A DNA stretch of 64,000 bases from Candidatus Poribacteria bacterium (GCA_965237835.1 OZ250160.1:2530146-2594145), one strand, 5' to 3'. Shown: positions 3,398 through 34,852, counted from the stretch's first letter. Translations and numbers: made by a program. Notes: generated by a model from the sequence alone, not told the origin.

Positions 3398-3600
3398 CTG
3401 AAAATCAAATGTGGAGATATATTTCGCACACCTGACGTGAGTTTGAATTAGGATTCAATTGTAGGTTGGACCGCGCGGTAAAGACAACGCAACTACTGTG
3501 GATGTGATAAATTGTTGGTTTTCACTCCGTTCAACCTAACCTACAACTTTACGCAAACTTACCTTATTCTTAATGTAGGTTTTCTAAAAAGGATTATTAT

Positions 3601-4932: not shown

Positions 4933-4997
4933 TGGCTGTATAAGTGAGTTTTCTACATAGATTATCCTCTTTTAATTGAAAGTGGATACTGACAACG

Positions 4998-6995: not shown

Positions 6996-7037
6996 TTTCA
7001 GTATGCCAGTTTTGTAAATCAGTTCCATATTAAAAGA

Positions 7038-7080
7038 AAAGAGGTTCAATGTGATTATCCACACTGAACCTCTTTTCTTT
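7038..7080. terminator. Bidirectional rho-independent terminator between convergent dinG and the methyltransferase
   Basis: Hairpin aagaggttca...tgaacctctt flanked by T-runs and A-runs. Confidence 0.5.
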
Positions 7081-7339
7081 TATAGTAATACCCAATTAAC
7101 TTGATCCCACTCGGTAGGTGCGGTTTCCCAACCGTACCGGAACTTATCAAATAGACGTCCGGTAACCAGTCGCAAAAAAACACGGGGTGCTTTTCTAACC
7201 GCACCTACCGGACCTGGAGGATCCCTAAATTGACGCATAAGGTGCGGTTAGGAAACCGCACCTACCACAGTGTCCAAGTAATTAACACGCGAATTTGACG
7301 GACTCATGTTGACTCAAAGGGCGAAATGTTTATAGCCGC

Positions 7340-9480: not shown

Positions 9481-9499
9481 TTATGTGTCCTAACAAAAG

Positions 9500-10636
9500 T
9501 TACTGCATAGTGAAGATAACGCCTAAAGCTTCATTTGGAGTTTGAATTAATTTTTCGCATGCGTCTGCGGCTTGATCAATTGGCACAATATCTGTAATCA
9601 ACGGCTGCACCTTAATCTTACCGTCCGATATCAATCGTAACGCCAGTTCTAAGTTGCGTTGTGTTGGCCACGGCACAAACACCGGCGGATAATCTGCTCC
9701 GTGTTCATAATCCTCATCGTGGTATCCCGGTCCGGTTCTCGCCGCGCTGATAACATCCACATTCCCAAGTCCCGCCGCAAAACCGTGCGTAATACTTGCC
9801 CCGCCAACAATAACAATCCGTCCCATTTTGTGCGTGTCCGGTGCTGTTTTCAACATTGCGCAGATCTGTTGAAAAGCACTCGTAGCATCCCCACCAAAGG
9901 CGATAATCCCGCAATCCATCCCATATCCTCTGGTGAATTCCTTCGCAATCGGAATCGGGTCTGTTTCAGAGACGTTTATTGCCAAATCAATGCCCGCGTT
10001 TTCAGCAATTCCTATCCGCAAAGGCAGCTGATCTAAACCGATCACATACGCACCAGCAGTTTTGGCAACTTGACTCGCAAATTGTCCGAGGACACCTAAT
10101 CCTGCAATGACAACATTTTCGCCGATACGGATACGTCCGCGTTGCACAGCGTGCAATGCTGTCGCCGCAAGGTGAATGCATGCCGCTTCTTCAGCCTTGA
10201 CATTATCAGGAATCTTAGCGCATAAGTTATGCGGCACACAAGCATACGTAGCGTGCAGAGCATAACCACCGCCCATACCTGCAACCCTATCGCCAATCTC
10301 AAACTCGTCGCAATCTCCTTCTTTACCGATGACAACGCCGGCATTAGTATATCCGAACGAATGCTTCTGTGTTTCGGAACCTGGATTTTCGCGTCTTCGC
10401 TTTATACCACCAAGTTCTGTGCCGGGACTAACCATTGAAGCGTGAACTTCAATCAGTAACTGTCCGTGTTTCGGTGCAGGTGTTTCCTGCTCCTCTGTCA
10501 AGATGCGACCCGCATCATTTCTCATCACAACTTTTCTTGTTTTACTCATAAATGCTTCCTCAGATTCGTCATACAAACTCAATTTTCCTTTTATATTAGG
10601 ATTTACGCAATATCCATTTTTAGAGACGAGACTCAA
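9500..10636 (-). CDS. Zinc-type alcohol dehydrogenase-like / MDR superfamily oxidoreductase
   Basis: GroES-like N-domain followed by a Rossmann motif AGLGVLGQFASQVAKTAGAYVIG. Confidence 0.7.
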   Translation of the reverse strand: MSLVSKNGYCVNPNIKGKLSLYDESEEAFMSKTRKVVMRNDAGRILTEEQETPAPKHGQLLIEVHASMVSPGTELGGIKRRRENPGSETQKHSFGYTNAGVVIGKEGDCDEFEIGDRVAGMGGGYALHATYACVPHNLCAKIPDNVKAEEAACIHLAATALHAVQRGRIRIGENVVIAGLGVLGQFASQVAKTAGAYVIGLDQLPLRIGIAENAGIDLAINVSETDPIPIAKEFTRGYGMDCGIIAFGGDATSAFQQICAMLKTAPDTHKMGRIVIVGGASITHGFAAGLGNVDVISAARTGPGYHDEDYEHGADYPPVFVPWPTQRNLELALRLISDGKIKVQPLITDIVPIDQAADACEKLIQTPNEALGVIFTMQ

Positions 10637-10910
10637 TATTTTTCATACTATGCACCCTTTCCGACCTAATACTGTGTCTCTATATTGTGAAAGGTGCCAT
10701 ATACCACTGTTTGGTCAATTCATGTCGGACTTTTGCGTAAATCCTATTATATAAGGAGTTTCAACTCTGGCTGTATTTTATTCTATTTTCCATTTGTTGT
10801 CAAATCTACTATGGATATTCAGTATCGTTAGGGATATGTGTATTGGTTAAATTATCCATGTATATCGCCGTATAAATCAATATTATCAAAAAAATATACG
10901 ATTACATGTC

Positions 10911-10929
10911 GGAATTGTCCCCAAATCTA
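10911..10929 (+). promoter_or_regulatory. Conserved upstream motif cGGAATTGTCCC-N-AAATCTA (candidate ECF-type promoter or operator)
   Basis: The same motif occurs at 14799-14819, 19611-19629 and 24121-24140, each directly upstream of a cassette gene (sigma or TPR-X). Confidence 0.35.
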
Positions 10930-10940
10930 CGTCATTATCA

Positions 10941-11712
10941 ATGAAGACAGTTAAAAATTTTTCTTGGAAGAGGGAAATCGAGGATGGTGCGCTGCATCGT
11001 CGGTTTTTGGAAACAGGCAGCGAAGCAGCACTGCGTTTGCTTATGCAGAAGTACTATAAGCCAATTTGTAGTCACGTTTTCGCGATCTTGAAAGATCATC
11101 AAGATGCAGATGAAATCACAAATGAAACCTTCCTCAAAGCCTTCAATAAGAGGGAAACGATCAAGTATCCTGATAAACTCGTGAGTTGGTTATATAAGAC
11201 CGCGAAAAATGCGGCGATTGAGCGATTAAGAGCCAGACAACGAGATGTTCACCAGATGCTCGATTTAGTCTCTCTTGATAATTTGGATGCTGAAAGAGAA
11301 GCTGCAGCCGCATCAATATTTGCGGCACAGCAGATTGAGACTGATCAATACTTGTTGACAAGTCTGCTGCGACTTCATAACGGAAAAGGATCGTGAGGTT
11401 GTAGAATACTTATTAGATGACCTAAAGCCGAAGCAGATTGCTGAAGTGATAGACTCCACACCGGAAGCAGTTCAGAAAAGATGGGAACGGATACTCAAGT
11501 GGTTAAGCCCGATTGCTCACCGATTAGACGAACTGCTTAATAACCTTCCGCCTCAAGAACGGAAAATAATGGAACGGTATTTAGATAATCAACCTCTTGA
11601 AGAGATTAGTGAAAAATTAGGTATCTCCCCGACTAATGTTAAAGCATGCGTGAAACGTGTGATGAAGCAGTGGAAGAAAACCACAAGGCAAACGCCACGA
11701 AACGGAGGATAA
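10941..11712 (+). pseudogene. ECF (sigma-70 family) sigma factor, split by an apparent +1 frameshift near 11375-11380
   Basis: Region 2 (ETFLKAF, KLVSWLYKTAKNAAIERLRARQR) lies in frame 0 and ends at 11396. A region-4 HTH (EISEKLGISPTNVKACVKRV) continues in another frame to 11712. Deleting one A in the A-run restores LRLHNGKDREVVEYLLDDL. Confidence 0.6.
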
Positions 11713-11713
11713 T

Positions 11714-12472
11714 ATGCTTCGCGACATCTGGACAAATAAATGGTTTATCGGTGGCTTTGGTTTTCTGATTGTTTTCGCGGTGCTGTGTTACTTCTGGTAC
11801 CAACACGATATTGCGTCATTCCAACAACAGTTATCGGCTACCGGTGATATTGTCTTTCAAGGGGATCTATCTCAAAAGGCACAAAAAACCGTTCAAACAG
11901 ACGTGCCGCTGATAGAATCTCTTGAATCTGTAGAAAATAGGTCTGAATCTGTTAGGGATACGTCGGTTCCCACAGAGAAGACAACAGAAAAAACCGACAC
12001 GTTTGAGATAAACACAAATTTAACTGCGGATGCTCCTATCTCTCCCTTTGGATTTGGTGCGTATCCTGAAGTTCCCGCTGATTATCCGTTTCAGGAACAA
12101 CTTTGGGATAATGCCACGCCAGAGCATGAGTTGTTAGTCCGAGTCGAAGTTAAGTTATGGAAACAAGGCACACAAACTAAAGGCTCTATGTTTGATCCTA
12201 ATAATGGTCTCATTTATCCATCTATTCCTGGTGTCCTTTACGTGCAATGGCGTTACATTGAAGAAGGAGACCCAGATTTAGTAGGGCAACGGTATGCCGG
12301 TAGAGTAAGCGGTGACGGAGATACTGCTAAAAAGTGGCAATCCTTATACCTTACTGACCGTATGTTTGAACGCACAGACGTAACGCATGACACTGAGGCA
12401 TCAGGTATAAAGATTTATGAGTACCCAGACGGGGGTATAGACCCCTACAAATTCCTCGATTTAACGAGGTAA
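11714..12472 (+). CDS. Cassette protein X1: N-terminal signal-anchor TM helix plus a conserved ~150-aa C-terminal domain of unknown function
   Basis: TM segment WFIGGFGFLIVFAVLCYFWY. The C-domain SPFGFGAYPEVPADYPFQE...YEYPDGGIDPYKFLDL is shared with 15254-16051, 19810-20568 and 24258-25397. Confidence 0.7.
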   Translation: MLRDIWTNKWFIGGFGFLIVFAVLCYFWYQHDIASFQQQLSATGDIVFQGDLSQKAQKTVQTDVPLIESLESVENRSESVRDTSVPTEKTTEKTDTFEINTNLTADAPISPFGFGAYPEVPADYPFQEQLWDNATPEHELLVRVEVKLWKQGTQTKGSMFDPNNGLIYPSIPGVLYVQWRYIEEGDPDLVGQRYAGRVSGDGDTAKKWQSLYLTDRMFERTDVTHDTEASGIKIYEYPDGGIDPYKFLDLTR

Positions 12473-12482
12473 GGAAAATAAA

Positions 12483-13256
12483 ATGAAATTGTATCGTGTT
12501 CTTTTACTAATTTTCTGTTCAGGCATCCTCTTCGTTGGTGTCGTTAGTGATATTTCAGCAGCAGGTTTTGATCGTGACGGTCCCTATGAAGCTTCTGTAG
12601 ATGCCCGTCGCTTTGGCGGAAATGAAAACAGATTACATGTCAATTTGTATGCAAGGGCTTCTAGTACTGACCGAGCGAGAAATGGTTACTTGAATATATT
12701 TCTTAAGATAACTAACGGATGGTCAGTAGATCCGGCTGTTACCCCTGTTGATAGTCACGTCTGGCTTTGGGATCACCGTGATTTTCAGTTTGAAGAAAAC
12801 GGAGGCTATGTTTATGCATATGCTTCTGGACAAGACACAGGGAGAGCCTGGTATACCGCCTACACTGACGACACTGCGGAGCCGATGCCTCCTCCTGATC
12901 CTCCACCCGCCACCAACCCCACCAACCCCACCAACCCCGAACCACAATTGGGCATATCCCCCGTAGATCCAGATGACACTCCTTATCCCGGCGAAGCACA
13001 TGAGTACAGACTTGTCACAGATGCACCTTATTACTATGTGTATTGGTATGTGAAGGCACCTTGGGAGACAAGTGAACGCGGATCATATATAGGGAGTGAC
13101 TCAGGTGACGGCACGACAACTGAAGCAACATTCAGTTACACGTTCCCGAGCGGTGCAATGCATACTGGAGATTTTCTGATAACAGCGGTCATTTACCGGT
13201 GGTCAGATATGTCTGAGTATGAGGAGACCTATACTGCGACTGTGTTGTTAGATTAA
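12483..13256 (+). CDS. Cassette protein Y1: secreted protein with a variable N-domain, a Pro-rich linker and a conserved C-terminal domain
   Basis: Signal peptide. Linker PMPPPDPPPATNPTNPTNPEPQLGISPVDPDD. The C-domain (...YYYVYWYVKAPWETSERG...YEETYTATVLLD) is shared with 16066-16836 and 20579-21358. RBS-coupled 10 bp after X1. Confidence 0.7.
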   Translation: MKLYRVLLLIFCSGILFVGVVSDISAAGFDRDGPYEASVDARRFGGNENRLHVNLYARASSTDRARNGYLNIFLKITNGWSVDPAVTPVDSHVWLWDHRDFQFEENGGYVYAYASGQDTGRAWYTAYTDDTAEPMPPPDPPPATNPTNPTNPEPQLGISPVDPDDTPYPGEAHEYRLVTDAPYYYVYWYVKAPWETSERGSYIGSDSGDGTTTEATFSYTFPSGAMHTGDFLITAVIYRWSDMSEYEETYTATVLLD

Positions 13257-13292
13257 AAATTATGTCACATTTATCAGTATGAATAACAATAG

Positions 13293-13330
13293 ACAGGTAA
13301 CTTTGCGGTTACCTGTCTTCTCTTTTTATC
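13293..13330 (+). terminator. Rho-independent terminator after Y1 (copies follow Y2 and Y3)
   Basis: acaggtaac-tttgc-ggttacctgt followed by cttctctttttat. Confidence 0.6.
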
Positions 13331-13338
13331 AGAAAAAG

Positions 13339-13367
13339 TTGACATGTAACATGTATACGCGTATATT
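13339..13367 (+). promoter_or_regulatory. Near-consensus sigma-70 promoter upstream of the WD40 gene
   Basis: TTGACA, 17-nt spacer, TATATT. Identical in the duplicated intergenic segments at 16919 and about 21437. Confidence 0.5.
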
Positions 13368-13544
13368 ATCTGAACCAGGATTTTCAGGATTATCAGATTT
13401 TCAGGATTATAGATACTTCCTCAAATGAACAAGGACTTTGTTGAGAAATATAGATTTGAAGATAATACTAGCAGAAGATAGCCATCCATCTAAAAGCATA
13501 CTAATCCTGATAATCCCATAATCCTGTCCATCCTGGTTCAGACA
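13368..13544. repeat. ~177-bp element bounded by ~40-bp imperfect inverted repeats (tctgaaccaggatt...aatcctggttcaga), MITE-like family 2, forming the 5' leader of the WD40 gene
   Basis: Left arm tctgaaccaggattttcaggattatcag, right arm ctaatcctgataatcccataatcctgtccatcctggttcaga. A complete copy lies at 34728-34852 and partial copies near 31716, 52640 and 55385. Confidence 0.5.
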
Positions 13545-13643
13545 ATCCGAGATTTAGACAGAACCTTTGACATTTAATCCAACACATAGTAGAATAAACA
13601 CAACGTTAATTGGTATTAGAACAGCACATAGGAGAACACACCC

Positions 13644-14753
13644 ATGAGAAACAGATTGTTTTCAATTTTTACAGCACTGTTTGTAGCACTCCCATTTATG
13701 ACCTGCAGTCTCCCATCAGGTTCATTGGAGGATCCGCTGCATGATCCACAGCAAGCCCCGCAGCAAGAGCATTTACCCGAAGGCGCGAAAGGGCGCATCA
13801 AGAAAGACAGGATCAATGATATAGCGTATTCACCAGACGGCACAAAGCTCGCTGTAGCAGGTGGTAGCGGTATTTGGCTCTACGATGCACAGACAGGTCA
13901 TGAACTTGTCCAATTCGCAGGACATACCGGTAAAGTCCACAACGTGGCATTTAGTCCGGATGGAAAGACTATCGTAAGTGCCGGTACCAGTTACGATCGG
14001 ACCATTCGTATATGGGATGTGAACACGGGAAGAAACCTACGAACATTCAAATATCAGGTCTTTGACGTTGCGTTTAGTCCGGATGGAAAGACGATCATAA
14101 GTGGCAGTCATGACAAAAACCTCTACTTATTGGATGCGGACACAGGTAAACTCCTACGCACCCTCTCTGGGCATACGGATTTTGTCTGGTACGTGGCGTT
14201 TAGTCCGGACGGAAAAACTATTGCAAGTCGCAGTCAAGACCAGACCATTTGTCTGTGGGATGCGGACATAGGTAAACTCCTACAAACAATCACATGGCAT
14301 TCGCATCTGCCCAAGCATCCTCTCAAGCATCCTCTCAATACCGTAATTTTTAGTCCTGATGGAAAGATGATCGCAAGTGTTGGTGATGACCAGACTATTT
14401 GGCTGTGGGATGTGAACACGGGAAAACAACTACGAACAATCGCAAGAAACACGTCTCCTCATCGTAAGAACTTGGCATTTAGTCCGGATGGAAGCATGAT
14501 TGCATGTAACAATTGGAAGGATATTGATCTGTGGGATGTGAACACGGGAAAACTCCTACGAACACTCACAGGGTATCGGGAGAATAACCCACCGCGTCGG
14601 GACCGGTTCAGCGGACATATTTTAGGATCCCCCTGGGTCTTTATGGTGGTGTTCAGTCCGGATGGAAAGACTATCGCAGGTGCCAGTGGGCATGGCGTCC
14701 ATCTGTGGGATGTGAACACGGGATACCTCCAAAAACTCATCAGTGGTTTTTGA
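13644..14753 (+). CDS. WD40 repeat beta-propeller protein with N-terminal secretion/lipoprotein-like signal (WD40-1)
   Basis: Repeated [21 protein letters not shown] WD40 units. Signal [17 protein letters not shown]. Confidence 0.85.
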   Translation: MRNRLFSIFTALFVALPFMTCSLPSGSLEDPLHDPQQAPQQEHLPEGAKGRIKKDRINDIAYSPDGTKLAVAGGSGIWLYDAQTGHELVQFAGHTGKVHNVAFSPDGKTIVSAGTSYDRTIRIWDVNTGRNLRTFKYQVFDVAFSPDGKTIISGSHDKNLYLLDADTGKLLRTLSGHTDFVWYVAFSPDGKTIASRSQDQTICLWDADIGKLLQTITWHSHLPKHPLKHPLNTVIFSPDGKMIASVGDDQTIWLWDVNTGKQLRTIARNTSPHRKNLAFSPDGSMIACNNWKDIDLWDVNTGKLLRTLTGYRENNPPRRDRFSGHILGSPWVFMVVFSPDGKTIAGASGHGVHLWDVNTGYLQKLISGF

Positions 14754-14935
14754 TACGACCGCGCTGCGGTCTGTTGTAAAATGCCAATTTTCTGTTAGCG
14801 GAATTGTCCCTTAAATCTATCTATAAGAGAAAACTCTCATAGAATAATAGCATCTGTTTGCAAGCATTCCTATCTGGTTTTGTGAATTAAATTCTAAACG
14901 TCCCTGTTAATTTCTACTTGGTAAGGAGAAAAATC

Positions 14936-16051
14936 ATGAAATTTGTCAACTTCTGTCTGTTTACTACTTTTGTTCTTACAACAGTAATGCAAATCGGATG
15001 TTTGTCCGGTGGTGCGATGGGTACTGCGGAAAAATTAAGTGAGACGAAAGACTATCGCGGTGCATTAGAAGTCTATCAAAATGTTGTAGATACCAAACCC
15101 GGTACTGCTGACGCGCGCGCAGCACAACTCGCAATAGGTGAACTCTACATTGAGCATATACATTAACCCGAACAAGGGATTGAAACTTATGAAGCGGTCA
15201 TTGCTGAAGCACCCACAAGCGATGAAGCTGCAGAGGCACACTATCGTCTCGGGATGCACGCCTATCGCCAAAAAGACTATGACGCAGCGCAAACCCAATT
15301 TGGTACTATTGTTAACCATTTTTCGCATCTGGAATTGAGTCACAACGCACAACTGATGTCGGCAAAAAGTTATGAGGATGGGCAAAAATTTGAACAAGCT
15401 GTAGAAGTTTATGATAATTTTGCGAACCGCAACCCACAGAGTAAACGCGCTGCACAAGCCCTCGCCAATAAAGCACGAATACAACGCAAATTCCTTAAAG
15501 ATGATGATGAAGCGATACGTACCCTGCAATTATTAGTCATAAAATACGGCAAAATTAAGAGCGCAGAATCATACGTTAAAGAAGCTAAAAAAGTATTAAT
15601 TGAATTCAATGTCTCTCCTTTTGGATTTGGTGCATATCCTGAAGTTCCCGCCGATTATCCATTTCAGGAGCGACTTTGGGATAATGCCACGCCAGAGAAT
15701 GAGTTGTTAATCCGAGTTCAGATTAAGTTATGGAATCAAGGAACACGAACTAAAGGTGCAGCGTTTAGTAGTAATGGTCTCGTTTATCCCACAATTTCTG
15801 GTGTCCTTTACGTAGAATGGCGTTACATTGAAGAAGGTGACCCAGATTTAGTAGGGCGACGGTATGCCGGTACAGTAAGCGGTGACGGAGAGACTGCTAA
15901 AAAGTGGCGATCTTTATACCTTACTGACCGTATGTTTGAGCGCACAGACGTAACGCATGACACTAAGGTATCAGGTATAAAGATTTATGAGTATCCAGAT
16001 GGAGGAATAGACCCCTACAAATTCCTCGATTTACCGAGGCAAGGAGAATAA
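14936..16051 (+). pseudogene. Cassette protein X2: TPR lipoprotein carrying the conserved X C-domain, interrupted by an in-frame TAA at 15164-15166
   Basis: The intact paralog at 24258-25397 reads CAA (Q) where this copy reads TAA. Lipobox MQIGC. TPR-like helices. The downstream ORF 15254-16051 carries the X C-domain. Confidence 0.6.
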
Positions 16052-16065
16052 AATGAAACTGTCCA

Positions 16066-16836
16066 GTGTTTTTTTACTTTTCATGCGTTGTCCTCTTCGT
16101 TGTTGCAGTTGGTGATATTTCAGCAGCTGTTGGACAGGACGGTCCCTATACTGCTGAAGCATACGGCTATCGCGTGGGCGGAATTAATAATGACAGATTA
16201 AATGTCAGTTTGTCTGGTAGGGCTAGTAGTACTGTGTTTGGAAGTGACGGTTATTATAAAATAGAGTTATTTAAAGAACTACCCAGCGGATGGAGTATAA
16301 TTGCTGAACAGGACGAGGTTGATACACATGGTGGTCAAATTGATGGCCACTTCTATGTAAACCTAGACTTAGATCTTCCTAGGGAAGAATACGCATGCTT
16401 TATTGACGTTGATGTTAGTGGTAGAGCGACAAATGGAAGGTACTGTTTTGCGGATGCTGATGAATATGTGGGACCGATGCCTCCACCTCCCCCTAATCCT
16501 CAACTCATCATCGACCCCGAACCACAAGTGGGCATATCCTCCGTAGATCCAGATGACACTCCTTATCCGGGGAACACATACGAGTTCAGACTTATCACAG
16601 ATGTCCATTATTATTGGGTGGACTGGTATGTGAAAGCACCCTGGGAGACAAGTGAAAGGGGAACACATATAGAAGGTCAATTAGGAGATGGCGAGACAAC
16701 TGAATCTACATTCAGTTACACGTTCCCGAGCGGTGCAATGCATACTGGAGATTTTCTGATAACAGCGGTCATTTACCGGTGGTCAGATATGTCTGAGTAT
16801 GAGGAGACCTATACTGCGACTGTGTTGTTAGATTAA
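16066..16836 (+). CDS. Cassette protein Y2 (secreted; variable N-domain, conserved C-domain); the native ATG at 16053 is out of frame through a T7 homopolymer, so the ORF opens at a GTG
   Basis: The ATG at 16053 reads into a TGA. A T7 run at 16068-16074 sits in the signal-peptide codons. The C-terminal 100 aa are almost identical to Y1 and Y3. Confidence 0.55.
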   Translation: MFFYFSCVVLFVVAVGDISAAVGQDGPYTAEAYGYRVGGINNDRLNVSLSGRASSTVFGSDGYYKIELFKELPSGWSIIAEQDEVDTHGGQIDGHFYVNLDLDLPREEYACFIDVDVSGRATNGRYCFADADEYVGPMPPPPPNPQLIIDPEPQVGISSVDPDDTPYPGNTYEFRLITDVHYYWVDWYVKAPWETSERGTHIEGQLGDGETTESTFSYTFPSGAMHTGDFLITAVIYRWSDMSEYEETYTATVLLD

Positions 16837-17223
16837 AAATTATGTCACATTTATCAGTATGAATAACAATAGACAGGTAACTTTGCGGTTACCTGTCTTC
16901 TCTTTTTATCAGAAAAAGTTGACATGTAACATGTATACGCGTATATTATCTGAACCAGGATTTTCAGGATTATCAGATTTTCAGGATTATAGATACTTCC
17001 TCAAATGAACAAGGACTTTGTTGAGAAATATAGATTTGAAGATAATACTAGCAGAAGATAGCCATCCATCTAAAAGCATACTAATCCTGATAATCCCATA
17101 ATCCTGTCCATCCTGGTTCAGACAATCCGAGATTTAGACAGAACCTTTGACATTTAATCCAACACATAGTAGAATAAACACAACGTTAATTGGTATTAGA
17201 ACAGCACATAGGAGAACACACCC

Positions 17224-18333
17224 ATGAGAAACAGATTGTTTTCAATTTTTACAGCACTGTTTGTAGCACTCCCATTTATGACCTGCAGTCTCCCATCAGG
17301 TTCATTGGAGGATCCGCTGCATGATCCACAGCAAGCCCCGCAGCAAGAGCATTTACCCGAAGGCGCGAAAGGGCGCATCAAGAAAGACAGGATCAATGAT
17401 ATAGCGTATTCACCAGACGGCACGAAGCTCGCGGTGGCAGGTGGTAGCGGTATTTGGCTCTATGATGCACAGACAGGTCATGAACTTGTCCAATTCGCAG
17501 GACATACCGGTAAAGTCCACAACGTGGCATTTAGTCCGGATGGAAAGACTATCGTAAGTGCCGGTACCAGTTACGATCGGACCATTCGTATATGGGATGT
17601 GAACACGGGAAGAAACCTACGAACATTCAAGTATCAGGTCTTTGACGTTGCGTTTAGTCCGGATGGAAAGACGATCATAAGTGGCAGTCATGACAAAAAC
17701 CTCTACTTATTGGATGCGGACACAGGTAAACTCCTACGCACCCTCTCTGGGCATACGGATTTTGTCTGGTACGTGGCGTTTAGTCCGGACGGAAAAACTA
17801 TCGCAAGTCGCAGTCAGGACAAGACCATTTGTCTGTGGGATGCGGACATAGGTAAACTCCTACAAACAATCACATGGCATTCGCATCTGCCCAAGCATCC
17901 TCACAAGCATCCTCTCAATACCGTAATTTTTAGTCCTGATGGAAAGATGATCGCAAGTGTTGGTGATGACCAGACTATTTGGCTGTGGGATGTGAACACG
18001 GGAAAACAACTACGAACAATCGCAAGAAACACGTCTCCTTATCGTAAGAACTTGGCATTTAGTCCGGATGGAAGCATGATTGCATGTAACAATTGGAAGG
18101 ATATTGATCTGTGGGATGTGAACACGGGAAAACAACTACGAACACTCACAGGGTATCGGGAGAATAACCCATCGCATCGGGACCGGTTCAGCGGACATAT
18201 TTTAGGAAACCCCAGCATCTTTACGGTGGTGTTTAGTCCGGATGGAAAGACTATCGCAGGTGCCAATAGGCGTGGCGTCCATCTGTGGGATGTGAACACG
18301 GGGTACCTCCGAAAACTCATCAGTGGTTTTTGA
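17224..18333 (+). CDS. WD40 repeat lipoprotein-like protein (WD40-2), near-identical to WD40-1
   Basis: 369 aa with only a few substitutions relative to 13644-14753. The upstream 387 bp is identical to 13257-13643. Confidence 0.85.
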
Positions 18334-18351
18334 TACGACCGCGCTGCGGTA

Positions 18352-18579
18352 TTAGGTATTTAGAACAGCACAAAAGGAGAACACACCCATGAAAAATAGC
18401 ACGAAACCAACTTTGTTGACATTTCCAACGCAAACCCTCCTCTTTGAGCCATTCCCAGATCGTTGAATCAGAAGATGAATACCCGTTTTCTCTGTAAACG
18501 CAGTTTGCAATCGTCCCAGTGTCCATACCTCAAATGGATAACCGAGACTACGCGGTTTTTGCAACGCTAAATCTATCAT
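18352..18579 (-). pseudogene. Remnant of an IS630-family transposase N-terminal HTH region
   Basis: [24 protein letters not shown]...RSGNGSKRR resembles the winged-HTH region of IS630/Tc1 transposases. Only ~75 aa remain. Confidence 0.35.
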
Positions 18580-19640
18580 ACCATATTAACTTGATTAGAA
18601 GTCTTTTGATATAGCACACGGTTGCGAGGCACGGGGACCTCGCGCTACAGATCGGGTTAATTTGGTATCAGTTGACCGCGCACCTCCGTTGAATGAATAC
18701 GCGGTTTACCGCTTTTCGGTTTATCAGCAGGTTTTCCTTTGATACCTTTTTCGTTCACGCAGCAGATATACTTGATTTGAAACCCGCTTGTTTTGCTGCT
18801 TGGGCAGCTGTCAGGGTGTTGTCATCAATCATGCTGACAATCAACCTGGCTCTCTGCACAGTCCGATAACATCTCCTCTATTTATAGCCCTCCGATCACT
18901 GTGTATTTATACCATTCTAAGTGATTATGTTGTGTTAGTTCGTAGGTTCGGTAGAGCGGTAACGAAACCATAAGTGTCAATTTAGTAGTCTTCCAACCCC
19001 GGTAGGTGCGGTTTCCTAACCGCACTATAACCGTCACCAAGTCTAACCGTAGATAAAGGGATACCACTCTCCATTGATAGAATACGAGGCTTCACTAGGT
19101 ATCTCATCACCATTAGCGAGTCCGGAAATGGGTTGGGTTAGTAAACAGACAGCTGCTAGTGCAAAAAGTATGTAGGTGCAAAAGGGGGCATGATATGAAA
19201 AAAGTTGGAAATGTTGAATGTCCACGGTTGAACGTAGGTGTGTAATTATCGGATATTTGCTATCTGGAATACGCAGGGCTGCATTTTTTGACACTGGGAA
19301 GTAATATGGGGGGGCTGGTTGTTTTGAAAAAGTCGTTGCGAGGCGTTTTTGACAGGAATTCGTTATATCGTAATGTTGGTCTGTTCAGATGTGCGATACG
19401 CGCATATGTGCAGCAGTCGCACACGTGCGCAGCACTCGGTGTTCATCTTGCCATATTATTAAAAGGTGTCAGGGATATCGTGCCCTAATATTTTATCCAT
19501 CTTTCAACGAACATTCTAACAGTATCGTTAGGGATATGTGTATTGGTTAAATTATCCATGTATATCGCCGTATAAATCAATATTATCAAAAAAATATACG
19601 ATTACATGTCGGAATTGTCCCCAAATCTACGTCATTATCA

Positions 19641-19808
19641 ATGAAGACAGTTAAAAATTTTTATAGGGAACGGTATTTAGACAATCAACCTCTCAAAGAG
19701 ATTAGTGAAAAATTGGGTATTTCTCTGACTAATGTTGAAGTATGCGTGAAACGTGTGATAAAGCAGTGGAAGAAATCCACAAGGCAAACGCCACGAAACG
19801 GAGGATAA
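19641..19808 (+). pseudogene. In-frame internal-deletion remnant of the ECF sigma gene (55-aa ORF retaining only the region-4 HTH)
   Basis: The first 7 codons (MKTVKNF) are fused to YRERYLDNQPLKEISEKLGISLTNVEVCVKRV. The upstream 140 bp is identical to 10800-10940. Confidence 0.5.
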
Positions 19809-19809
19809 T

Positions 19810-20568
19810 ATGCTTCGCGACATTTGGACAAATAAATGGTTTATCGGTGGCTTCGGTTTTCTGATTGTTTTCTCGGTGCTGTGTTACTTCTGGTACCAAC
19901 ACGATATAGCGTCATTCCAACAACAGTTATCGGCTACCGGTGATATTGTCTTTCAAGGGGATCTATCTCAAAAGGCACAAAAAACCGTTCAAACAGACGT
20001 GCCGCTGATAGAATCTCTTGAATCTGTAGAAAATAGGTCTGAATCTGTTAGGGATACGTCGGTTCCCACAGAGAAGACAACAGAAAAAACCGACACGTTT
20101 GAGATAAACACAAAATTAACTGCGGATGCTCCTACTTCTCCCTTTGGATTTGGTGCATATCCTGAAGTTCCCGCTGATTATCCGTTTCAGGAACGACTTT
20201 GGGATAACGCCACGCCAGAGCATGAGTTGTTAGTCCGAGTCGAAGTTAAGTTATGGAAACAAGGCACACAAACTAAAGGCTCTATGTTTGATACTAATAA
20301 TGGTCTCATTTATCCGACTATTCCTGGTGTCCTTTACGTGAAATGGCGTTACATTGAAGAAGGAGACCCAGATTTAGTAGGGCGAAGGTATGCCGGTAGA
20401 GTAAGCGGTGACGGAGATACTGCTAAAAAGTGGCAATCCTTATACCTTACTGACCGTATGTTTGAACGCACAGACGTAACGCATGACACTGAGGCATCAG
20501 GTATAAAGATTTATGAGTACCCAGACGGGGGTATAGACCCCTACAAATTCCTCGATTTAACGAGGTAA
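19810..20568 (+). CDS. Cassette protein X3 (TM anchor plus conserved X C-domain), near-identical to X1
   Basis: 252 aa with a handful of substitutions relative to 11714-12472. Confidence 0.7.
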   Translation: MLRDIWTNKWFIGGFGFLIVFSVLCYFWYQHDIASFQQQLSATGDIVFQGDLSQKAQKTVQTDVPLIESLESVENRSESVRDTSVPTEKTTEKTDTFEINTKLTADAPTSPFGFGAYPEVPADYPFQERLWDNATPEHELLVRVEVKLWKQGTQTKGSMFDTNNGLIYPTIPGVLYVKWRYIEEGDPDLVGRRYAGRVSGDGDTAKKWQSLYLTDRMFERTDVTHDTEASGIKIYEYPDGGIDPYKFLDLTR

Positions 20569-20578
20569 GGAAAATAAA

Positions 20579-21358
20579 ATGAAATTGTATCGTGTTCTTT
20601 TACTTTTTTTCTTTTCATGCGCTATCCTCTTCGTTGGTGCAGTTAGTGATATTTCAGCAGATGCTCAAGTTAACGGTCCCTATACTGCTGAAGCATACGT
20701 TTATCGTGTTAACACAGCTAATGTCATATTGACCGCTAAAGCTAGTAGTACGCCGCGGGCAAAAAACGGTAAGTATAAATTAGTTGCAAATAAAGATTCA
20801 GATTTAAACAGACAGGTCGAAACTTGGGATCCACTTGAAGAACAAACCCACCTGGATACACATGGTGCTCCAATTGATGGTGAATTCTCCGAAGAGCTAA
20901 AAAGAAATTATCCTTCGACAGAATACGGATACCAGGCTAAATCACTTGTTGATGGACAATTGACAGATGGAGCTTTTCGTGCTGCTTTTGCTGAAGATAA
21001 AGTGGGCGAGATACCTATTCTTGAACCCACCCCCGTCCCTCAACCACAATTGGGCATATCCCCCGTAGATCCAGATGACACTCCTTATCCCGGCGAAGCA
21101 CATGAGTACAGACTTGTCACAGAGGCACCTTATTACTATGTGAATTGGTATGTGAAGGCACCTTGGGAGACAAGTGAACGCGGATCATATATAGGGAGTG
21201 ACTCAGGTGACGGCACGACAACTGAATCTACATTCAGTTACACGTTCCCGAGCGGTGCAATGCATACTGGAGATTTTCTGATAACAGCGGTCATTTACCG
21301 GTGGTCAGATATGTCTGAGTATGAGGAGACTTATACTGCGACTGTGTCATTAGATTAA
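20579..21358 (+). CDS. Cassette protein Y3 (secreted; divergent N-domain, conserved C-domain)
   Basis: Signal peptide. N-domain only distantly similar to Y1 and Y2 (DGPYTAEAY.YRV...ASST). C-terminal ~105 aa conserved. Confidence 0.7.
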   Translation: MKLYRVLLLFFFSCAILFVGAVSDISADAQVNGPYTAEAYVYRVNTANVILTAKASSTPRAKNGKYKLVANKDSDLNRQVETWDPLEEQTHLDTHGAPIDGEFSEELKRNYPSTEYGYQAKSLVDGQLTDGAFRAAFAEDKVGEIPILEPTPVPQPQLGISPVDPDDTPYPGEAHEYRLVTEAPYYYVNWYVKAPWETSERGSYIGSDSGDGTTTESTFSYTFPSGAMHTGDFLITAVIYRWSDMSEYEETYTATVSLD

Positions 21359-21768
21359 AATTACGTCGCATTTATCATTGTGAATAACAACAGACAGGTA
21401 TCCTTGAGGTTACCTGTCTTCTCTTTTTATCAGAAAAAGTTGACATGTAACATGTATACGCGTATATTATCTGAACCAGGATTCTCAAGATTACCAGATT
21501 TTCAGGATTATAGATACTTCCTCAAATGAACAAGGACTTTGTCGAGAAATATAGATTTGAAGATAATACTAACTAGCAGAAGATAGCCATCCATCTAAAA
21601 GCATACTAATCCTGTCCATCCTGGTTCAGACAATCCGAGATTCAGACAGAACCTTTGACATTTAATCCAACATATAGTAGAATAAACGCAACATTAAAAT
21701 GATTTATATTTAGCCCGCGTCTTTCTATCCAGATAGGTATTTAGCACAGCACACAGGAGAACACACCC

Positions 21769-22917
21769 ATGAGAAACAAATTGTTTTCAATTTTGACAGC
21801 ACTGTTTGTAGCACTCCCATTTATGACCTGCAGTCTTCCGCCAGGTTCACTGGAGGAACCGCTACATGATCCACAGCAGGAACCGCAGCAGAAACCGCAG
21901 CAAGAGCATTTACCCAATGGCGTGAAAGTGCCCCCCGGGAGAGTATGGGTTATGGATGTAAAATTTTCACCCGATGGCACATGTCTCGCGGTGGCGGGTG
22001 GCATCGGCATTTTGCTTTACGATACACAGACTTATGACAAACCGGACCTACTTAAAGGGCATACGGGTTATATATGGTGCATAGCGTTTCGTCCGGATGG
22101 AAAGGTGCTCGCAAGTGCAGGTCAGGACCGGACTGTCCGTTTGTGGGATGTGAACACGAGACAACAAATCAGAACATTTGGAATAAACTTGTATCCTACG
22201 TCAAACATAACATTTAGTCCGGATGGCAAGACACTCGCAAGCGCAACTGGAGGTAATAATACGAAGGATGTTATGAACGTCTATCTATGGGATGCAGACA
22301 CAGGTAAACGCCTACGCACACTCTCTGGGCATACGAATATAGTCAACGATGTGTCGTTTCGTCCGGATGGAAATATGCTCGCAAGTGCGTGTGACGACCA
22401 AACCGTCCGTCTGTGGGATGTGGAGACGGGACAACATATCAGAACACTATCTGGGCATACGAAGATGGTCGAGAGCGTTGCATTTAGTCCGGATGGAAAT
22501 ATGCTCGTAAGTGGAGGTGGGTATCATAATGCTGTCGCTCTGTGGAATGCGAACACGGGACAACAAATCAGAGCACTCACTATCAATGCACACTTGGAAC
22601 AACAAATCAATGTCCACATGGAAAAATATAGCAGACACATAGGCGCAAAAGGGGGGAGCAAGATTAGTGGAGAAGATGTGGCGTTCAGTCCGGATGGAAA
22701 CACTATCGCAAGTACCGGTCCTTCTTCCATCCATCTGTGGGATATGGGCTCGGGACAACACCACAGAATACTCCACAACGGAAAGTATCCTGATATAGCA
22801 ACAGATGTAGCGTTCAGTCCGGATGGAAACACTATCGCGTGTGTAGGTTGGTATGAAGCACATGTGTGGGATGTGGAGACGGGAAAACTCATCCGAATAC
22901 TCATGGGCAAACATTGA
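21769..22917 (+). CDS. WD40 repeat lipoprotein-like protein (WD40-3, divergent paralog)
   Basis: Same signal and leader as the other WD40 genes. WD40 units FSPDG....LWDV. Confidence 0.85.
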   Translation: MRNKLFSILTALFVALPFMTCSLPPGSLEEPLHDPQQEPQQKPQQEHLPNGVKVPPGRVWVMDVKFSPDGTCLAVAGGIGILLYDTQTYDKPDLLKGHTGYIWCIAFRPDGKVLASAGQDRTVRLWDVNTRQQIRTFGINLYPTSNITFSPDGKTLASATGGNNTKDVMNVYLWDADTGKRLRTLSGHTNIVNDVSFRPDGNMLASACDDQTVRLWDVETGQHIRTLSGHTKMVESVAFSPDGNMLVSGGGYHNAVALWNANTGQQIRALTINAHLEQQINVHMEKYSRHIGAKGGSKISGEDVAFSPDGNTIASTGPSSIHLWDMGSGQHHRILHNGKYPDIATDVAFSPDGNTIACVGWYEAHVWDVETGKLIRILMGKH

Positions 22918-22971
22918 TACTACCGTTCTGTGGTATTAGGTATTTAGAACAGCACACAGGAGAACACACCC

Positions 22972-24075
22972 ATGAGAAACAGATTGTTTTCAATTTTCAC
23001 AGCACTGTTTATAAAACTAACATTTCTGAGCTGCAGTCTCCCACCCGGTTCATTGGAGGATCCGCTGCATGATCCACAGCAAGCCCCGCAGCAAGAGCAT
23101 TTACCCGAAGGCGCGAAAGGGCGCATCAAGAAAGACAGGATCCATGATATAGCGTATTCACCAGATGGCACGAAGCTAGCGGTGGCAGGTGGTAGCGGTA
23201 TTTGGCTCTACGATGCACAGACAGGTCATGAACTTGTCCAATTCGCAGGACATACCTATACAGTCCACAACGTGGCATTTCGTCCAGACGGAAAGACTAT
23301 CGTAAGTGCCGCTATCGGTTACGATCAGACCATTCGTATATGGGATGTGAACACGGGAAGAAACCTACGAACATTCAGGTATGTGGCCTTTGACGTCGCG
23401 TTTAGCCCGGATGGAAAGATGATCGTAAGTGGCGGTCATGACAAAAACCTCTATTTACTGGATGCGGACACAGGTAAACTCGTACGCACCCTCTCTGGGC
23501 ATACGGATTTTGTCTGGAGCGTGGCGTTTAGTCCGGATGGAAAAACTATCGCAAGTCGCAGTCAGGACAAGACCATTCGTCTGTGGGATGCGAACACAGG
23601 AAAACTCCTGCGAACACTCACAATGGATACGCATCTGCCCAAGTATTTTCTCAATATCGTAATTTTTAGTCCTGATGGAAAAGTGATCGCAAGTGTTGGT
23701 AATGACCGGACCATTTGTCTGTGGGATGCTAACACGGGAAAACGCCTACGAACAATCGCAAGAAATACGACTCCTTTTCATAAAAACTTGGCATTTAGTC
23801 CGGATGGAAGCATGATCGCATGCAACAATTGGCTCGATATTGACCTATGGGATGTGAACAACGGAAAACTCCTACGAACACTCACAGGGTATAGGGAGAA
23901 TAACCCATCGCGTCGGGAGTGGAGGAGAGGACATATTGGACTTATAGGACCCCCCGGAATCTTTACGGTGGTGTTCAGTCCGGATGGAAAGACTATCGCA
24001 GGTGCCAGTGTGCATGGCGTCCATCTGTGGGATGTGAACACGGGGTACCTCCGAAAACTCATCAGTGGTTTTTGA
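22972..24075 (+). CDS. WD40 repeat lipoprotein-like protein (WD40-4)
   Basis: Closest to WD40-1 and WD40-2. The downstream 165 bp is identical to 14754-14917. Confidence 0.85.
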   Translation: MRNRLFSIFTALFIKLTFLSCSLPPGSLEDPLHDPQQAPQQEHLPEGAKGRIKKDRIHDIAYSPDGTKLAVAGGSGIWLYDAQTGHELVQFAGHTYTVHNVAFRPDGKTIVSAAIGYDQTIRIWDVNTGRNLRTFRYVAFDVAFSPDGKMIVSGGHDKNLYLLDADTGKLVRTLSGHTDFVWSVAFSPDGKTIASRSQDKTIRLWDANTGKLLRTLTMDTHLPKYFLNIVIFSPDGKVIASVGNDRTICLWDANTGKRLRTIARNTTPFHKNLAFSPDGSMIACNNWLDIDLWDVNNGKLLRTLTGYRENNPSRREWRRGHIGLIGPPGIFTVVFSPDGKTIAGASVHGVHLWDVNTGYLRKLISGF

Positions 24076-24257
24076 TACGACCGCGCTGCGGTCTGTTGTA
24101 AAATGCCAATTTTCTGTTAGCGGAATTGTCCCTTAAATCTATCTATAAGAGAAAACTCTCATAGAATAATAGCATCTGTTTGCAAGCATTCCTATCTGGT
24201 TTTGTGAATTAAATTCTAAACGTCCCTGTTAATTTCTACTTGGTAAGGAGAAAAATC

Positions 24258-25397
24258 ATGAAATTTGTCAACTTCTGTCTGTTTACTACTTTTGTTCTTA
24301 TAACAGTAATGCAAATCGGATGTTTGTCCGGTGGTGCGATGGGTACTGCGGAAAAATTAAGTGAGACGAAAGACTATCGCGGTGCATTAGAAGTCTATCA
24401 AAATGTTGTAGATACCAAACCCGGTACTGCTGACGCGCGCGCAGCACAACTCGCAATAGGTGAACTCTACATTGAGCATATACATCAACCCGAACAAGGG
24501 ATTGAAACTTATGAAGCGGTCATTGCTGAAGCACCCACAAGCGATGAAGCTGCAGAGGCACACTATCGTCTCGGGATGCACGCCTATCGCCAAAAAGACT
24601 ATGACGCAGCGCAAACCCAATTTGGTACTATTGTTAACCAATTTTCGCATCTGGAATTGAGTCACAACGCACAACTGATGTCGGCAAAAAGTTATGAGGA
24701 CGGGCAAAAATTTGAACAAGCTGTAGAAGTTTATGATAATTTTGCGAACCGCAACCCACAGAGTAAACGCGCTGCACAAGCCCTCGCCAATAAAGCGCGA
24801 ATACAACGCAAATTCCTTAAAGATGATGATGAAGCGATACGTACCCTGCAATCATTAGTCATAAAATACGGCAAAATTAAGAGCGCAGAATCATACGTTA
24901 AAGAAGCTAAAAAAGTATTAATTGAATTCAATGTCTCTCCTTTTGGATTTGGTGCATATCCTGAAGTTCCCGCCGATTATCCATTTCAGGAGCGACTTTG
25001 GGATAATGCCACGCCAGAGCATGAGTTGTTAGTCCGAGTCGAAGTTAAGTTATGGAATCAAGGAACACGAACTAAAGGTGCAGCGTTTAGTAGTAATGGT
25101 CTCGTTTATCCCACAATTTCTGGTGTCCTTTACGTAGAATGGCGTTACATTGAAGAAGGTGACCCAGATTTAGTAGGGCAACGGTATGCGGGACGTGTAA
25201 TGGGTGACGGAGATACTGCTAAAAAGTGGCGATCTTTATACCTTACTGACCGTATGTTTGAGCGCACAGACGTAACGCATGACACTGAGGTATCAGGTAT
25301 AAAGATTTATGAGTATCCAGATGGAGGAATAGACCCCTACAAATTCCTCGATTTACCGAGGTTTGATGTTGAATTGAGAGAAGGAGGCAAAAACTAA
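24258..25397 (+). CDS. Cassette protein X4: intact TPR lipoprotein fused to the conserved X C-domain
   Basis: RBS AAGGAG 7 nt upstream of the ATG at 24258. Lipobox IGC. TPR-like repeats. C-domain SPFGFGAYPEVPADYPFQER... Confidence 0.75.
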   Translation: MKFVNFCLFTTFVLITVMQIGCLSGGAMGTAEKLSETKDYRGALEVYQNVVDTKPGTADARAAQLAIGELYIEHIHQPEQGIETYEAVIAEAPTSDEAAEAHYRLGMHAYRQKDYDAAQTQFGTIVNQFSHLELSHNAQLMSAKSYEDGQKFEQAVEVYDNFANRNPQSKRAAQALANKARIQRKFLKDDDEAIRTLQSLVIKYGKIKSAESYVKEAKKVLIEFNVSPFGFGAYPEVPADYPFQERLWDNATPEHELLVRVEVKLWNQGTRTKGAAFSSNGLVYPTISGVLYVEWRYIEEGDPDLVGQRYAGRVMGDGDTAKKWRSLYLTDRMFERTDVTHDTEVSGIKIYEYPDGGIDPYKFLDLPRFDVELREGGKN

Positions 25398-25414
25398 ACG
25401 TCTCTGAAATTACA

Positions 25415-34727: not shown

Positions 34728-34852
34728 CCGGTAATTTGTCTGAACCAGGATTCACAGGATTTTCGGATTTTCAAGGTTAGGAGTTGCGGATACAACCTAC
34801 GATGAGACGATGGGCGCGGCGTTCCTTAATCCTGAAAATCCTGGTTCAGACA
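34728..34852. repeat. MITE-like element family 2 (complete copy; IRs tctgaaccaggatt / aatcctggttcaga)
   Basis: Inverted repeats at both ends. Same family as the WD40 leader element. Confidence 0.5.

Follow-up and report, generated by a model that had tools for sequence, protein, structure and literature searches.

A tandem array of sigma, X, Y, WD40, and TPR-X genes

The window analyzed here, a 64,000-nucleotide stretch of a Candidatus Poribacteria genome (OZ250160.1:2530146-2594145), contains a tandem array of genes encoding an extracytoplasmic function (ECF) sigma factor, members of two protein families that we call X and Y, WD40 beta-propellers, and a tetratricopeptide repeat (TPR) protein fused to the C-terminal domain of X (TPR-X). 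Listing of the open reading frames (ORFs) together with repeat finding revealed the recurring order (sigma)-X-Y, WD40, TPR-X, with all genes on the plus strand (Table 1). A preliminary description of this DNA, made from the sequence alone, had proposed an array of three to four X-Y-WD40 cassettes, and the repeated order in the ORF listing bears this out. Judged by its sequence, this is a genuine tandem amplification that is specific to the lineage and comprises three to four cassettes, which are partly decayed. Elsewhere in the 64-kb window, no extra X, Y, WD40, or sigma copies were found. The array is followed by a ComEC gene on the opposite strand.

The DNA identities reported between the cassettes were largely reproduced. 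Positions 13257-13643 and 16837-17223 are identical in 387 of 387 bases, and positions 14754-14917 match 24076-24239 in 164 of 164 bases (the second interval had been drawn to 24240). A third pair, 10800-10960 and 19500-19660, is indeed near-identical in its main part (146 of 148 bases for 10820-10967 versus 19520-19667), but identity begins only at 10820 and amounts to 89% over the intervals originally given. At the protein level, X1 and X3 as well as WD40-1 and WD40-2 (96.2% identity) are the close pairs they were said to be. Furthermore, the sequence encoding the X C-domain forms a repeat of ~430 nt that is present in X and TPR-X genes in four copies with 85 to 91% nucleotide identity (repeat families D1 and D11); the encoded domains are 84.5 to 96.5% identical, and the repeat period is ~3.58 kb. 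At an offset of 3580 bp, identity climbs from background to 100% near 13100-13200 and drops near 14700. Such a sharp-edged tract of 100% identity would be a signature of gene conversion or of very recent duplication.

The array is located on a circular Candidatus Poribacteria contig of 5,928,137 bp with 47.6x coverage; it encodes a protein identical to Y3, and the genes called there match the window. A close relative (locus L003, OZ244616.1; loci from other genomes are given with the prefix L) shows ~94 to 97% nucleotide identity and has the alcohol-dehydrogenase and ComEC flanks in common, and it harbors a single cassette only, sigma-X-Y-WD40-TPR-X. Since this relative with the same flanks has one cassette, we regard the array as a lineage-specific amplification. 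As read from this comparison, the ancestral unit, of which the closest relative has one copy, is sigma-X-Y, WD40 (one to three genes), TPR-X. The X C-domain repeat is an obvious substrate for an unequal exchange that would have put Y after TPR-X2. The array may thus have grown when the ~430-nt repeats that encode the X C-domain in X and TPR-X recombined unequally, and gene conversion would afterwards have homogenized all parts except the Y N-domains. The cassettes are real paralogues and not one collapsed unit, as seen from the Y N-domains, which are 31 to 43% identical, and from WD40-3 (54%).

Four inactivating changes, which are absent from the preliminary description, affect both sigma copies, TPR-X2, and Y2. 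Sigma copy 1 has one extra base near position 11376 compared to the intact orthologues of L003, L001, and L008, and its sigma-2 region is thereby split from sigma-4. The sigma copy in cassette 3 retains the promoter, 7 codons at the start, and the last 48 codons, an internal deletion at 19662 having reduced the product to 55 aa. TPR-X2, which is 98% identical to X4 (TPR-X4), carries a nonsense change from CAA to TAA at 15164-15166 relative to both X4 and L003. Finally, the Y2 ATG at 16053, which aligns with the Y1 and Y3 starts, meets a stop after 20 codons, and the body of Y2 lies in another frame, starting from a GTG without a charged n-region. The remaining genes, namely, X1, Y1, X3, Y3, TPR-X4, and WD40-1 to WD40-4, are intact. 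On this reading of the frames, cassette 2 is largely pseudogenized and the array is already partly decaying. The earlier statement that the array is headed by an ECF sigma factor is therefore true for the orthologous loci, but it does not hold functionally here, where neither copy is intact.

Each spacer between Y and WD40 contains a hairpin and 11/12 matches to a sigma-70 promoter, in line with the terminator and promoter proposed for this position. These strong matches provide the WD40 genes with putative promoters of their own, located after the terminator-like hairpin downstream of Y. The proposed long inverted-repeat leader of these genes, in contrast, proved to belong to a dispersed element resembling miniature inverted-repeat transposable elements (MITEs), copies of which are also present outside the array. 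It has 45-nt inverted arms (13365-13409 and 13502-13546) with the terminal inverted repeats TCTGAACCAGGATT... and ...AATCCTGGTTCAGA and internal GGATTAT-type repeats, and 11/12 sigma-70-like promoter matches flank it on both sides, at 13339 and 13567. Copies occupy 13365-13546, 16945-17126, and 21466-21634 in the cassettes, and the terminal sequences recur at 31727, at 34740-34849 (34740/34838), and at 52678. Since an Rfam search of the region from 10 to 26 kb gave only subthreshold matches, the inverted repeat is not a known RNA. By its sequence features, the palindrome is a MITE-like insertion that was copied with the cassette and not a dedicated leader.

The degenerate spacer at 18334-19519 gave no match in a Pfam scan, and the assignment of its transposase fragments is at motif level only. 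These fragments are frameshifted, and the spacer also holds several GC-rich hairpins.

Table 1. Features of the array (positions in the window; a dot indicates that no strand applies)
Feature	Position	Strand	Remarks
ECF-type bipartite promoter TGTCGGA-N16-CGTC, sigma copy 1	10908-10934	+	Same motif upstream of orthologous sigma genes
ECF sigma gene copy 1, frameshifted	10941-11712	+	ORFs 10941-11396 and 11446-11712
X1, predicted bitopic membrane protein: conserved N-anchor, disordered linker, ~148-aa C-domain	11714-12472	+	
Y1, predicted secreted protein, two beta-sandwich domains	12483-13256	+	Start 10 nt past X1 stop
Terminator-like hairpin after Y1	13291-13318	+	12-bp stem, then T-run; repeated at 16871-16898
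MITE-like palindromic element, 45-nt inverted arms	13365-13546	.	Copies in cassettes 2 and 3
WD40-1, beta-propeller, signal peptide and lipobox-like Cys	13644-14753	+	Pfam WD40, E=2e-49
TPR-X2, putative TPR lipoprotein fused to X C-domain, pseudogene	14918-16051	+	
Y2, divergent N-domain, canonical start out of frame	16066-16836	+	
WD40-2	17224-18333	+	96% identical to WD40-1
Degenerate spacer of ~1.2 kb, IS630-like transposase fragments on minus strand	18334-19519	.	ORF translations only
Second ECF-type promoter copy and internally deleted sigma remnant	19608-19808	+	55-aa ORF 19641-19808
X3	19810-20568	+	96.8% identical to X1
Y3	20579-21358	+	Versus Y1: N-domain 31%, C-domain 96%
WD40-3, divergent paralogue	21769-22917	+	~54% identical to other WD40s
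WD40-4	22972-24075	+	~84% identical to WD40-1 and WD40-2
TPR-X4, intact putative TPR lipoprotein fused to X C-domain	24240-25397	+	Pfam TPR_6, E=1.9e-17

Conservation of the cassette and of the X-Y pair

In a scan of one genome per GTDB species, we found 350 X-encoding stretches, the best 76 loci of which were examined. All of these are from metagenome-assembled genomes (MAGs) labeled Poribacteria, except for three loci of one "uncultured bacterium" MAG. A profile search against 1.84 billion representative sequences retrieved at least 725 clusters (50% identity) of the X family at E<=0.001, and the source-given names of X and Y homologues are all Candidatus Poribacteria.

Among the closest X relatives (L001-L032), the gene order is (sigma)-X-Y-WD40(1-3)-(TPR-X). 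Many of these loci hold only part of the order or stop at a contig edge, and none of them breaks it. X, Y, WD40, and ECF sigma genes occur together in many other Poribacteria genomes; their failure to co-occur elsewhere had been named as an observation that would speak against a gene system. The number of copies varies: in L025, WD40 and TPR-X are repeated, and L005, L009, and L030 have three WD40 genes each.

The most constant association is that of Y with X. Of 27 Y ORFs, 25 are directly preceded by X, most often at a distance of 10 to 11 nt, which agrees with the start of Y 10 bp after X noted previously. When distant Y loci were fetched independently, an X-family gene was directly upstream in 3/3, with no sigma or WD40 gene nearby. 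Because Y almost never occurs without X, we consider X-Y to be the conserved core, to which a single orthologous subgroup has sigma, WD40, and TPR-X joined.

X is also strongly expanded in some genomes. L037 carries nine X paralogues and two Y genes at 1773-12888, and L048 and L049 carry five X genes each. A linkage of distant X paralogues to sigma genes was considered and rejected, since 9 of 50 such paralogues are near a sigma gene, which is not clearly above chance in a sigma-rich genome.

The ECF sigma factor and its promoter

Pfam detected Sigma70_r2 on the first and Sigma70_r4_2 on the second ORF of sigma copy 1, and the two ORFs matched TIGR02937 (sigma70-ECF) with 43.8 and 43.3 bits (cutoff, 42.9). 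Only sigma-2 and sigma-4 regions are present, without sigma-1.1 or sigma-3, as is typical of the ECF type. The intact L001 orthologue matches Sigma70_ECF across residues 11-178. At ~245 to 260 aa, the protein comprises a complete ECF core and, at its C terminus, a second sigma-4-like helix-turn-helix (HTH) of ~60 to 70 aa. Thus, sigma-2 is followed by two consecutive sigma-4-like HTH segments, a weak one (20.6 bits) and then a clear one (35.3 bits) (window, 11359-11712; L001, 9261-9998; L003, 9220-9999). Among the 120 homologues listed of 156, most are ~220 to 270 aa long and some are shorter fragments; all source-given names are Poribacteria.

Upstream of sigma, the sequence ATGTCGGAAT...ACGT is kept in seven orthologous loci (L001, L003, L005-L008, and L011), which are only ~57 to 75% identical in X. 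It is present twice in the window, at 10908 and 19608. A further copy, at position 20113 of L012, is located ~10 kb downstream of the X gene of that locus; it sits upstream of ATGAAGGCA, a sequence like those at sigma starts, and no sigma ORF was identified there. Motif conservation thus provides the sigma operon with a bipartite promoter of the autoregulatory kind, the promoter function being putative.

The core of this TGTCGGA-N16-CGT motif, GGAATTGTCCC, occurs in the window at 10911, 14800, 19611, and 24122, and five matches were obtained with at most one mismatch, versus 1.35 expected. The copies upstream of TPR-X (14800 and 24122) have neither the TGTC nor the CGT element. Upstream of TPR-X, the motif was not found in other genomes, in which the spacers between WD40 and TPR-X are short. 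The recurrence of the motif had been read as dedicated regulation of the cassette. This holds for its conservation upstream of sigma, but not for the TPR-X copies, which are incomplete and absent elsewhere. A cassette-wide regulon is therefore not supported, the conserved ECF-type promoter being present only upstream of sigma or its remnant. We infer that this promoter, the only ECF-type promoter backed by conservation, drives sigma-X-Y. The extension-type ECF sigma factor would then transcribe its own operon from TGTCGGA-N16-CGT.

A conserved ATGAAG[AG]CA follows just past the -10 element. In the window (10941), L003, and L008, sigma starts at its ATG, so that the mRNA would be nearly leaderless. 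In L001 (9194-9261), L005, and L007, the same ATGAAG[AG]CA lies in a 30- to 40-nt 5' untranslated region before a Shine-Dalgarno sequence and a later start.

At L083 (6001-11985), a paralogous sigma gene with two HTH segments, 47% identical, is followed by four genes. The first product, of 321 aa, is a membrane protein in which a different C-domain is combined with an X-type anchor. The second (518 aa) is secreted and contains the Y C-domain twice, the third (360 aa) ends in ...AFGLW and is possibly an outer membrane barrel, and the fourth is PD40-like. To judge from these genes, L083 looks like a second, divergent version of the module. A general link between sigma and X beyond the orthologous group was rejected, because only L083 of four paralogue loci shows it.

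Poribacteria also encode giant ECF sigma fusions of 900 to 1090 aa with C-terminal BNR/Sortilin-type or WD40 propeller repeats (L029, 5602-8499, minus strand; L040, 4431-7607; L051, 11600-14497; L059, 6360-9620; L044, 17017-19728, minus strand). Several of these fusions adjoin distant X paralogues, which may be due to chance only. Poribacteria are not mentioned in the ECF reclassification paper (PMC7826278), and our literature search on Poribacteria and ECF or sigma factors returned nothing relevant.

Predicted properties of X and Y

Neither X nor Y belongs to a Pfam, NCBIfam, or PADLOC family. Sequence-profile searches of the PDB with X and Y alignments gave nothing significant, and the X C-domain showed no TonB_C or TolA-III match by fold or profile. 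The earlier view that only WD40 and TPR have recognizable domains is therefore correct for X, but not for Y, which is predicted to consist of two Ig/FN3/MG-like beta-sandwich domains.

In an AlphaFold2 model of X based on a 75-sequence alignment, residues 9-44 form a helix that includes the hydrophobic membrane span, residues 40-103 form a disordered linker (predicted local distance difference test [pLDDT] score below 50), and residues 105-252 form a confident alpha/beta C-domain (pLDDT of 85 to 96 by block). One helix of X has a conserved face with E139, R143, and K147. Across the family, the N-terminal 32 residues are most conserved, with a mean identity of 54% versus 47% for the C-domain. 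Since the X C-domain is also found behind a lipobox-like signal in TPR-X, it probably works outside the cytoplasm, which suggests an N-in, C-out topology for X. Accordingly oriented, X would be anchored in the inner membrane and hold its C-domain in the periplasm on a disordered tether of ~60 residues.

The N-anchor of X, M[LIF]R[DE]I.TNKW.IGG.GFLIVF..CY.WYQHD (window, 11714-11821; X1 residues 1-36), is a conserved module in its own right. With a 36-column hidden Markov model, it was also detected (E of ~1e-21 to 1e-23) at the head of Poribacteria proteins with at least two to three other, unrelated C-domains (L033, 1898-2920, minus strand; L033, 4227-5273; L048, 6390-7166; L048, 11669-12622; L055, 13891-14511). 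None of these proteins has a Pfam match. The X-type anchor, so far seen only in Poribacteria, may be a sorting or interaction signal.

The Y proteins, which contain a proline-rich linker, are conserved at one end and variable at the other. Within the window, their N-domains are 31 to 43% identical (Y2 to Y1 and Y3, 37 to 43%) and their C-domains 81 to 96%; across the family, the averages are 30% and 65%, respectively. Each N-type has its own close relatives in other metagenomes. Moreover, the two parts are reassorted, since P0122 combines a Y1-like N-domain (86%) with a Y2-like C-domain (95%). X and Y are probably coproduced through translational coupling. The conserved Y C-domain would dock on the X C-domain, and the hypervariable Y N-domain would set the ligand specificity.

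Predicted properties of WD40 and TPR-X proteins

WD40-1, WD40-3, and WD40-4 matched PF00400 with E values from 2e-49 to 3e-45 and four to five scored repeats each. WD40-2 was assigned by its 96% identity to WD40-1. The N-terminal part of TPR-X has TPR_6-type repeats similar to those of YbgF and BamD. It scored 77.3 bits with TIGR02795 (YbgF/CpoB; cutoff, 90.1; E=1.4e-21), 49.2 bits with TIGR03302 (BamD; cutoff, 81.4), and 26.8 bits with Pfam YfiO, just over the cutoff of 25. The WD40 proteins scored 44 to 51 bits with TIGR02800 (TolB; cutoff, 343). PADLOC gave generic repeat matches only for WD40 and TPR-X, and no known antiphage defense model was matched.

All predicted products have an N-terminal signal or anchor, as stated before; this assignment was made by eye and from conservation among orthologues. 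In TPR-X orthologues, Q[IF]GC is invariant after a hydrophobic stretch. The N terminus of WD40-1 reads ...ALPFMTC|S, and the window WD40s have FMTC or FLSC. The WD40 orthologues all carry signal peptides, many of them without Cys and resembling signal peptidase I substrates. TPR-X is thus a plausible lipoprotein; for WD40, this is uncertain. Both the propellers and TPR-X may be separately transcribed scaffold partners, TPR-X displaying the X C-domain from a second anchor.

Model and alternative explanations

Taking these data together, we propose that the locus is an amplified and decaying copy set of a module of extracytoplasmic proteins that has so far been found only in Poribacteria and is autoregulated under an ECF sigma factor. 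We give this model a probability of roughly one half. In it, the sigma factor would act as in extension-bearing ECFs without anti-sigma factors such as ECF41, its neighbors being targets and not regulators.

Several observations weigh against the model. Of 116 X ORFs, 91 have no adjoining Y and 25 have one, so X does not require Y, and three of four distant sigma paralogue loci are without X and Y. An ECF-type promoter before WD40 or TPR-X genes was found in no genome examined, and their membership in the system follows from conserved synteny only. Signal peptides and lipoboxes were judged by eye, and X-Y binding, the WD40 partnership, and localization are all inferred. The X C-domain had no fold match in the PDB in a search that used the whole chain including the membrane-span helix. 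Finally, both local sigma genes are disrupted, and autoregulation should be inoperable in this genome unless another sigma factor substitutes.

A further-reaching version of the model is tentative, and we would not yet bet on it. In this version, X-Y would be the core of an undescribed envelope recognition system of Poribacteria, with X providing a docking domain on two anchors and Y acting as an adaptor with an exchangeable head. The sigma factor would represent a new ECF subgroup in which a duplicated sigma-4-like domain replaces the anti-sigma factor, and the X-type anchor, reused on unrelated C-domains, would be a new sorting or signaling module of the phylum. If true, an envelope recognition system of this kind would bear on how symbionts are recognized by hosts or phages.

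Alternatively, the array could be a locus for a variable surface or for interaction with the host. WD40 and TPR proteins as well as the Y head would then be exposed or released and serve in recognition or evasion of the sponge host or of phages. Diversifying or frequency-dependent selection, as in contingency loci, would account for the amplification, the shuffled domains, and the pseudogenes. WD40 and TPR are among the most abundant eukaryote-like domains of Poribacteria, for which a role in host interaction was proposed (PMC3909097). The hypervariable Y N-domain and its reassortment with C-domains between strains, copy numbers that differ between genomes (up to the nine X genes of L037), and the pseudogenes inside the array are also compatible with this explanation. 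However, the export signals seen are of the Sec type only, and the X anchor with its tether and the sigma linkage point to a periplasmic and not to a secreted system. Moreover, the preliminary description had raised the idea of a contingency locus, which fits the Y N-domain but not the lack of a switch: no slippery repeat, invertible promoter, or other phase variation element turned up in the repeat, promoter, and Rfam scans, which were not designed for these, and the sole homopolymer near the Y2 start is a T7. We regard this explanation as possible although not probable; it is compatible with, and not exclusive of, the autoregulated-module model.

X is unlikely to serve the sigma factor as its cognate anti-sigma factor or as a transmembrane signal transducer, as in cell-surface signaling, with the periplasmic C-domain sensing Y, WD40, or a ligand and the N-anchor relaying the signal. 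X does occupy the classic position of an anti-sigma gene, directly after sigma, with its start 1 nt past the sigma stop. Its N-terminal 32 residues are the most conserved part, and the same anchor is reused on other C-domains, in one case beside a paralogous sigma. Cytoplasmic anti-sigma domains comprise ~60 to 90 aa in class I and ~30 to 45 aa in class II, however, and only ~9 residues precede the membrane helix of X, far too few for either. In addition, no match to RskA, zf-HC2, or another anti-sigma family was found in Pfam or NCBIfam, and most X genes have no sigma gene nearby. The sigma factor itself bears a C-terminal extension; among the modes of ECF regulation, such extensions rank second in frequency, and they are usually paired with no anti-sigma factor (PMC7826278).

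Still less credit can be given to an envelope module related to Tol-Pal and CpoB or accessory to the beta-barrel assembly machinery (BAM), with X in the role of TolA/TonB, WD40 in that of TolB/BamB, and TPR-X in that of CpoB/BamD. The topology of X is that of TolA/TonB (short N terminus, membrane helix, long flexible linker, and globular C-domain), the TPR part matches YbgF/CpoB (TIGR02795) and BamD/YfiO, and one source names a homologue "TolA-binding protein." But the NCBIfam scores for YbgF, BamD, and TolB are all under the family cutoffs, Pfam YfiO alone just passing. Moreover, no TolQ/R, ExbB/D, Pal, or BamA is present in the called gene tables of L001, L002, and L079 (at the other loci, the screen covered X, Y, WD40, and sigma), and X occurs in multiple copies per genome, for example, in at least seven loci of OX638351.1.

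An assembly artefact, in which a single cassette or several strain variants would have been falsely concatenated, is very hard to believe. The sequence does come from a MAG, some tracts are 100% identical across ~700 bp, and X1 and X3 differ by about as much as separates this species from L003. However, the copies are distinct in structure and not in sequence alone (TPR-X joined to Y2, the sigma deletion, the extra WD40-3 at 54%, Y N-domains at 31 to 43%, and the 1.2-kb spacer with insertion sequence remnants). In addition, the contig is circular at 47.6x coverage, multiplied cassette parts are also found in other genomes, and the repeats of 1.5 to 3.6 kb are shorter than HiFi reads, the contig name having what we take to be the format of a HiFi metaMDBG assembly.

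The classifiable parts (ECF sigma, WD40, TPR, and Ig-like domains) are ordinary. The X C-domain, the X anchor, and the X-Y pairing are unmatched in the libraries and papers searched. Poribacteria are dominant, uncultivated sponge symbionts, and the roles of many of their secreted repeat proteins are guessed. Here, "eukaryote-like" WD40 and TPR genes are placed in a conserved, sigma-linked cassette together with two large families without matches. The cassette offers testable handles: a defined pair of promoter and sigma factor, X and Y as predicted stoichiometric partners, and a hypervariable domain as a marker of the site of selection. Furthermore, the one-cassette relative and the genome with three to four cassettes record the expansion and decay of a family, in which unequal recombination, gene conversion, and pseudogenization would have taken part.

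Comparison with known systems

In agreement with the initial impression that no described system matches the cassette, literature and family libraries gave none, and literature on Poribacteria with WD40 or ECF/sigma contained only general statements about eukaryote-like repeats. Partial likenesses exist to several systems. The closest for the sigma factor are the ECF41-like groups, which also have a sigma-2 and sigma-4 core with a fused C-terminal extension (PMC3426412, PMC7826278). The bipartite promoter has the format of ECF41, with a TGTC-type -35 element, a 16-bp spacer, and a CGTC-type -10 element (the ECF41 signature is TGTCACA-n16-CGTC [PMC3426412]). It likewise precedes an operon of sigma and conserved neighbors, with no recognizable anti-sigma domain nearby. 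In contrast to the ~100-aa SnoaL-like extension of ECF41, however, the extension is here a second sigma-4-like HTH (Sigma70_r4_2/HTH match), and the neighbors are X and Y instead of a COE oxidoreductase.

RpoE-RseA, SigW-RsiW, and FecI-FecR share with our locus a sigma gene followed by a coupled single-pass membrane protein with an extracytoplasmic C-domain and an autoregulatory-style promoter. They differ in that X, with its ~9 cytoplasmic residues, has no anti-sigma domain and in that most X paralogues have no adjoining sigma. TolA/TolB/CpoB and BamB/BamD resemble the cassette in the TolA-like topology of X, in the propeller and TPR_6 proteins with signal- or lipoprotein-like N termini, and in weak YbgF/BamD matches, but the X C-domain is without a fold match, TolQR, Pal, and BamA are missing from the gene tables of L001, L002, and L079, and X and Y are multicopy and variable.

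Y is reminiscent of type IX secretion system cargo with a C-terminal domain of the TIGR04183 type, as it combines variable N-modules with a conserved C-terminal beta-sandwich of ~100 aa. Y1, Y2, and Y3, however, matched neither TIGR04183 nor another NCBIfam family at E<=0.1, and the 518-aa protein of L083 contains the Y C-domain twice, once internally, which argues for a repeatable domain and not for a terminal signal. Lastly, the eukaryote-like repeat proteins of sponge symbionts (PMC3909097) come from the same phylum, have the same domain classes, and frequently carry signal peptides or membrane helices. What sets the present locus apart from them is that its WD40 and TPR genes belong to a conserved cassette that also encodes a sigma factor and members of two unclassified families, with X-Y as its core.

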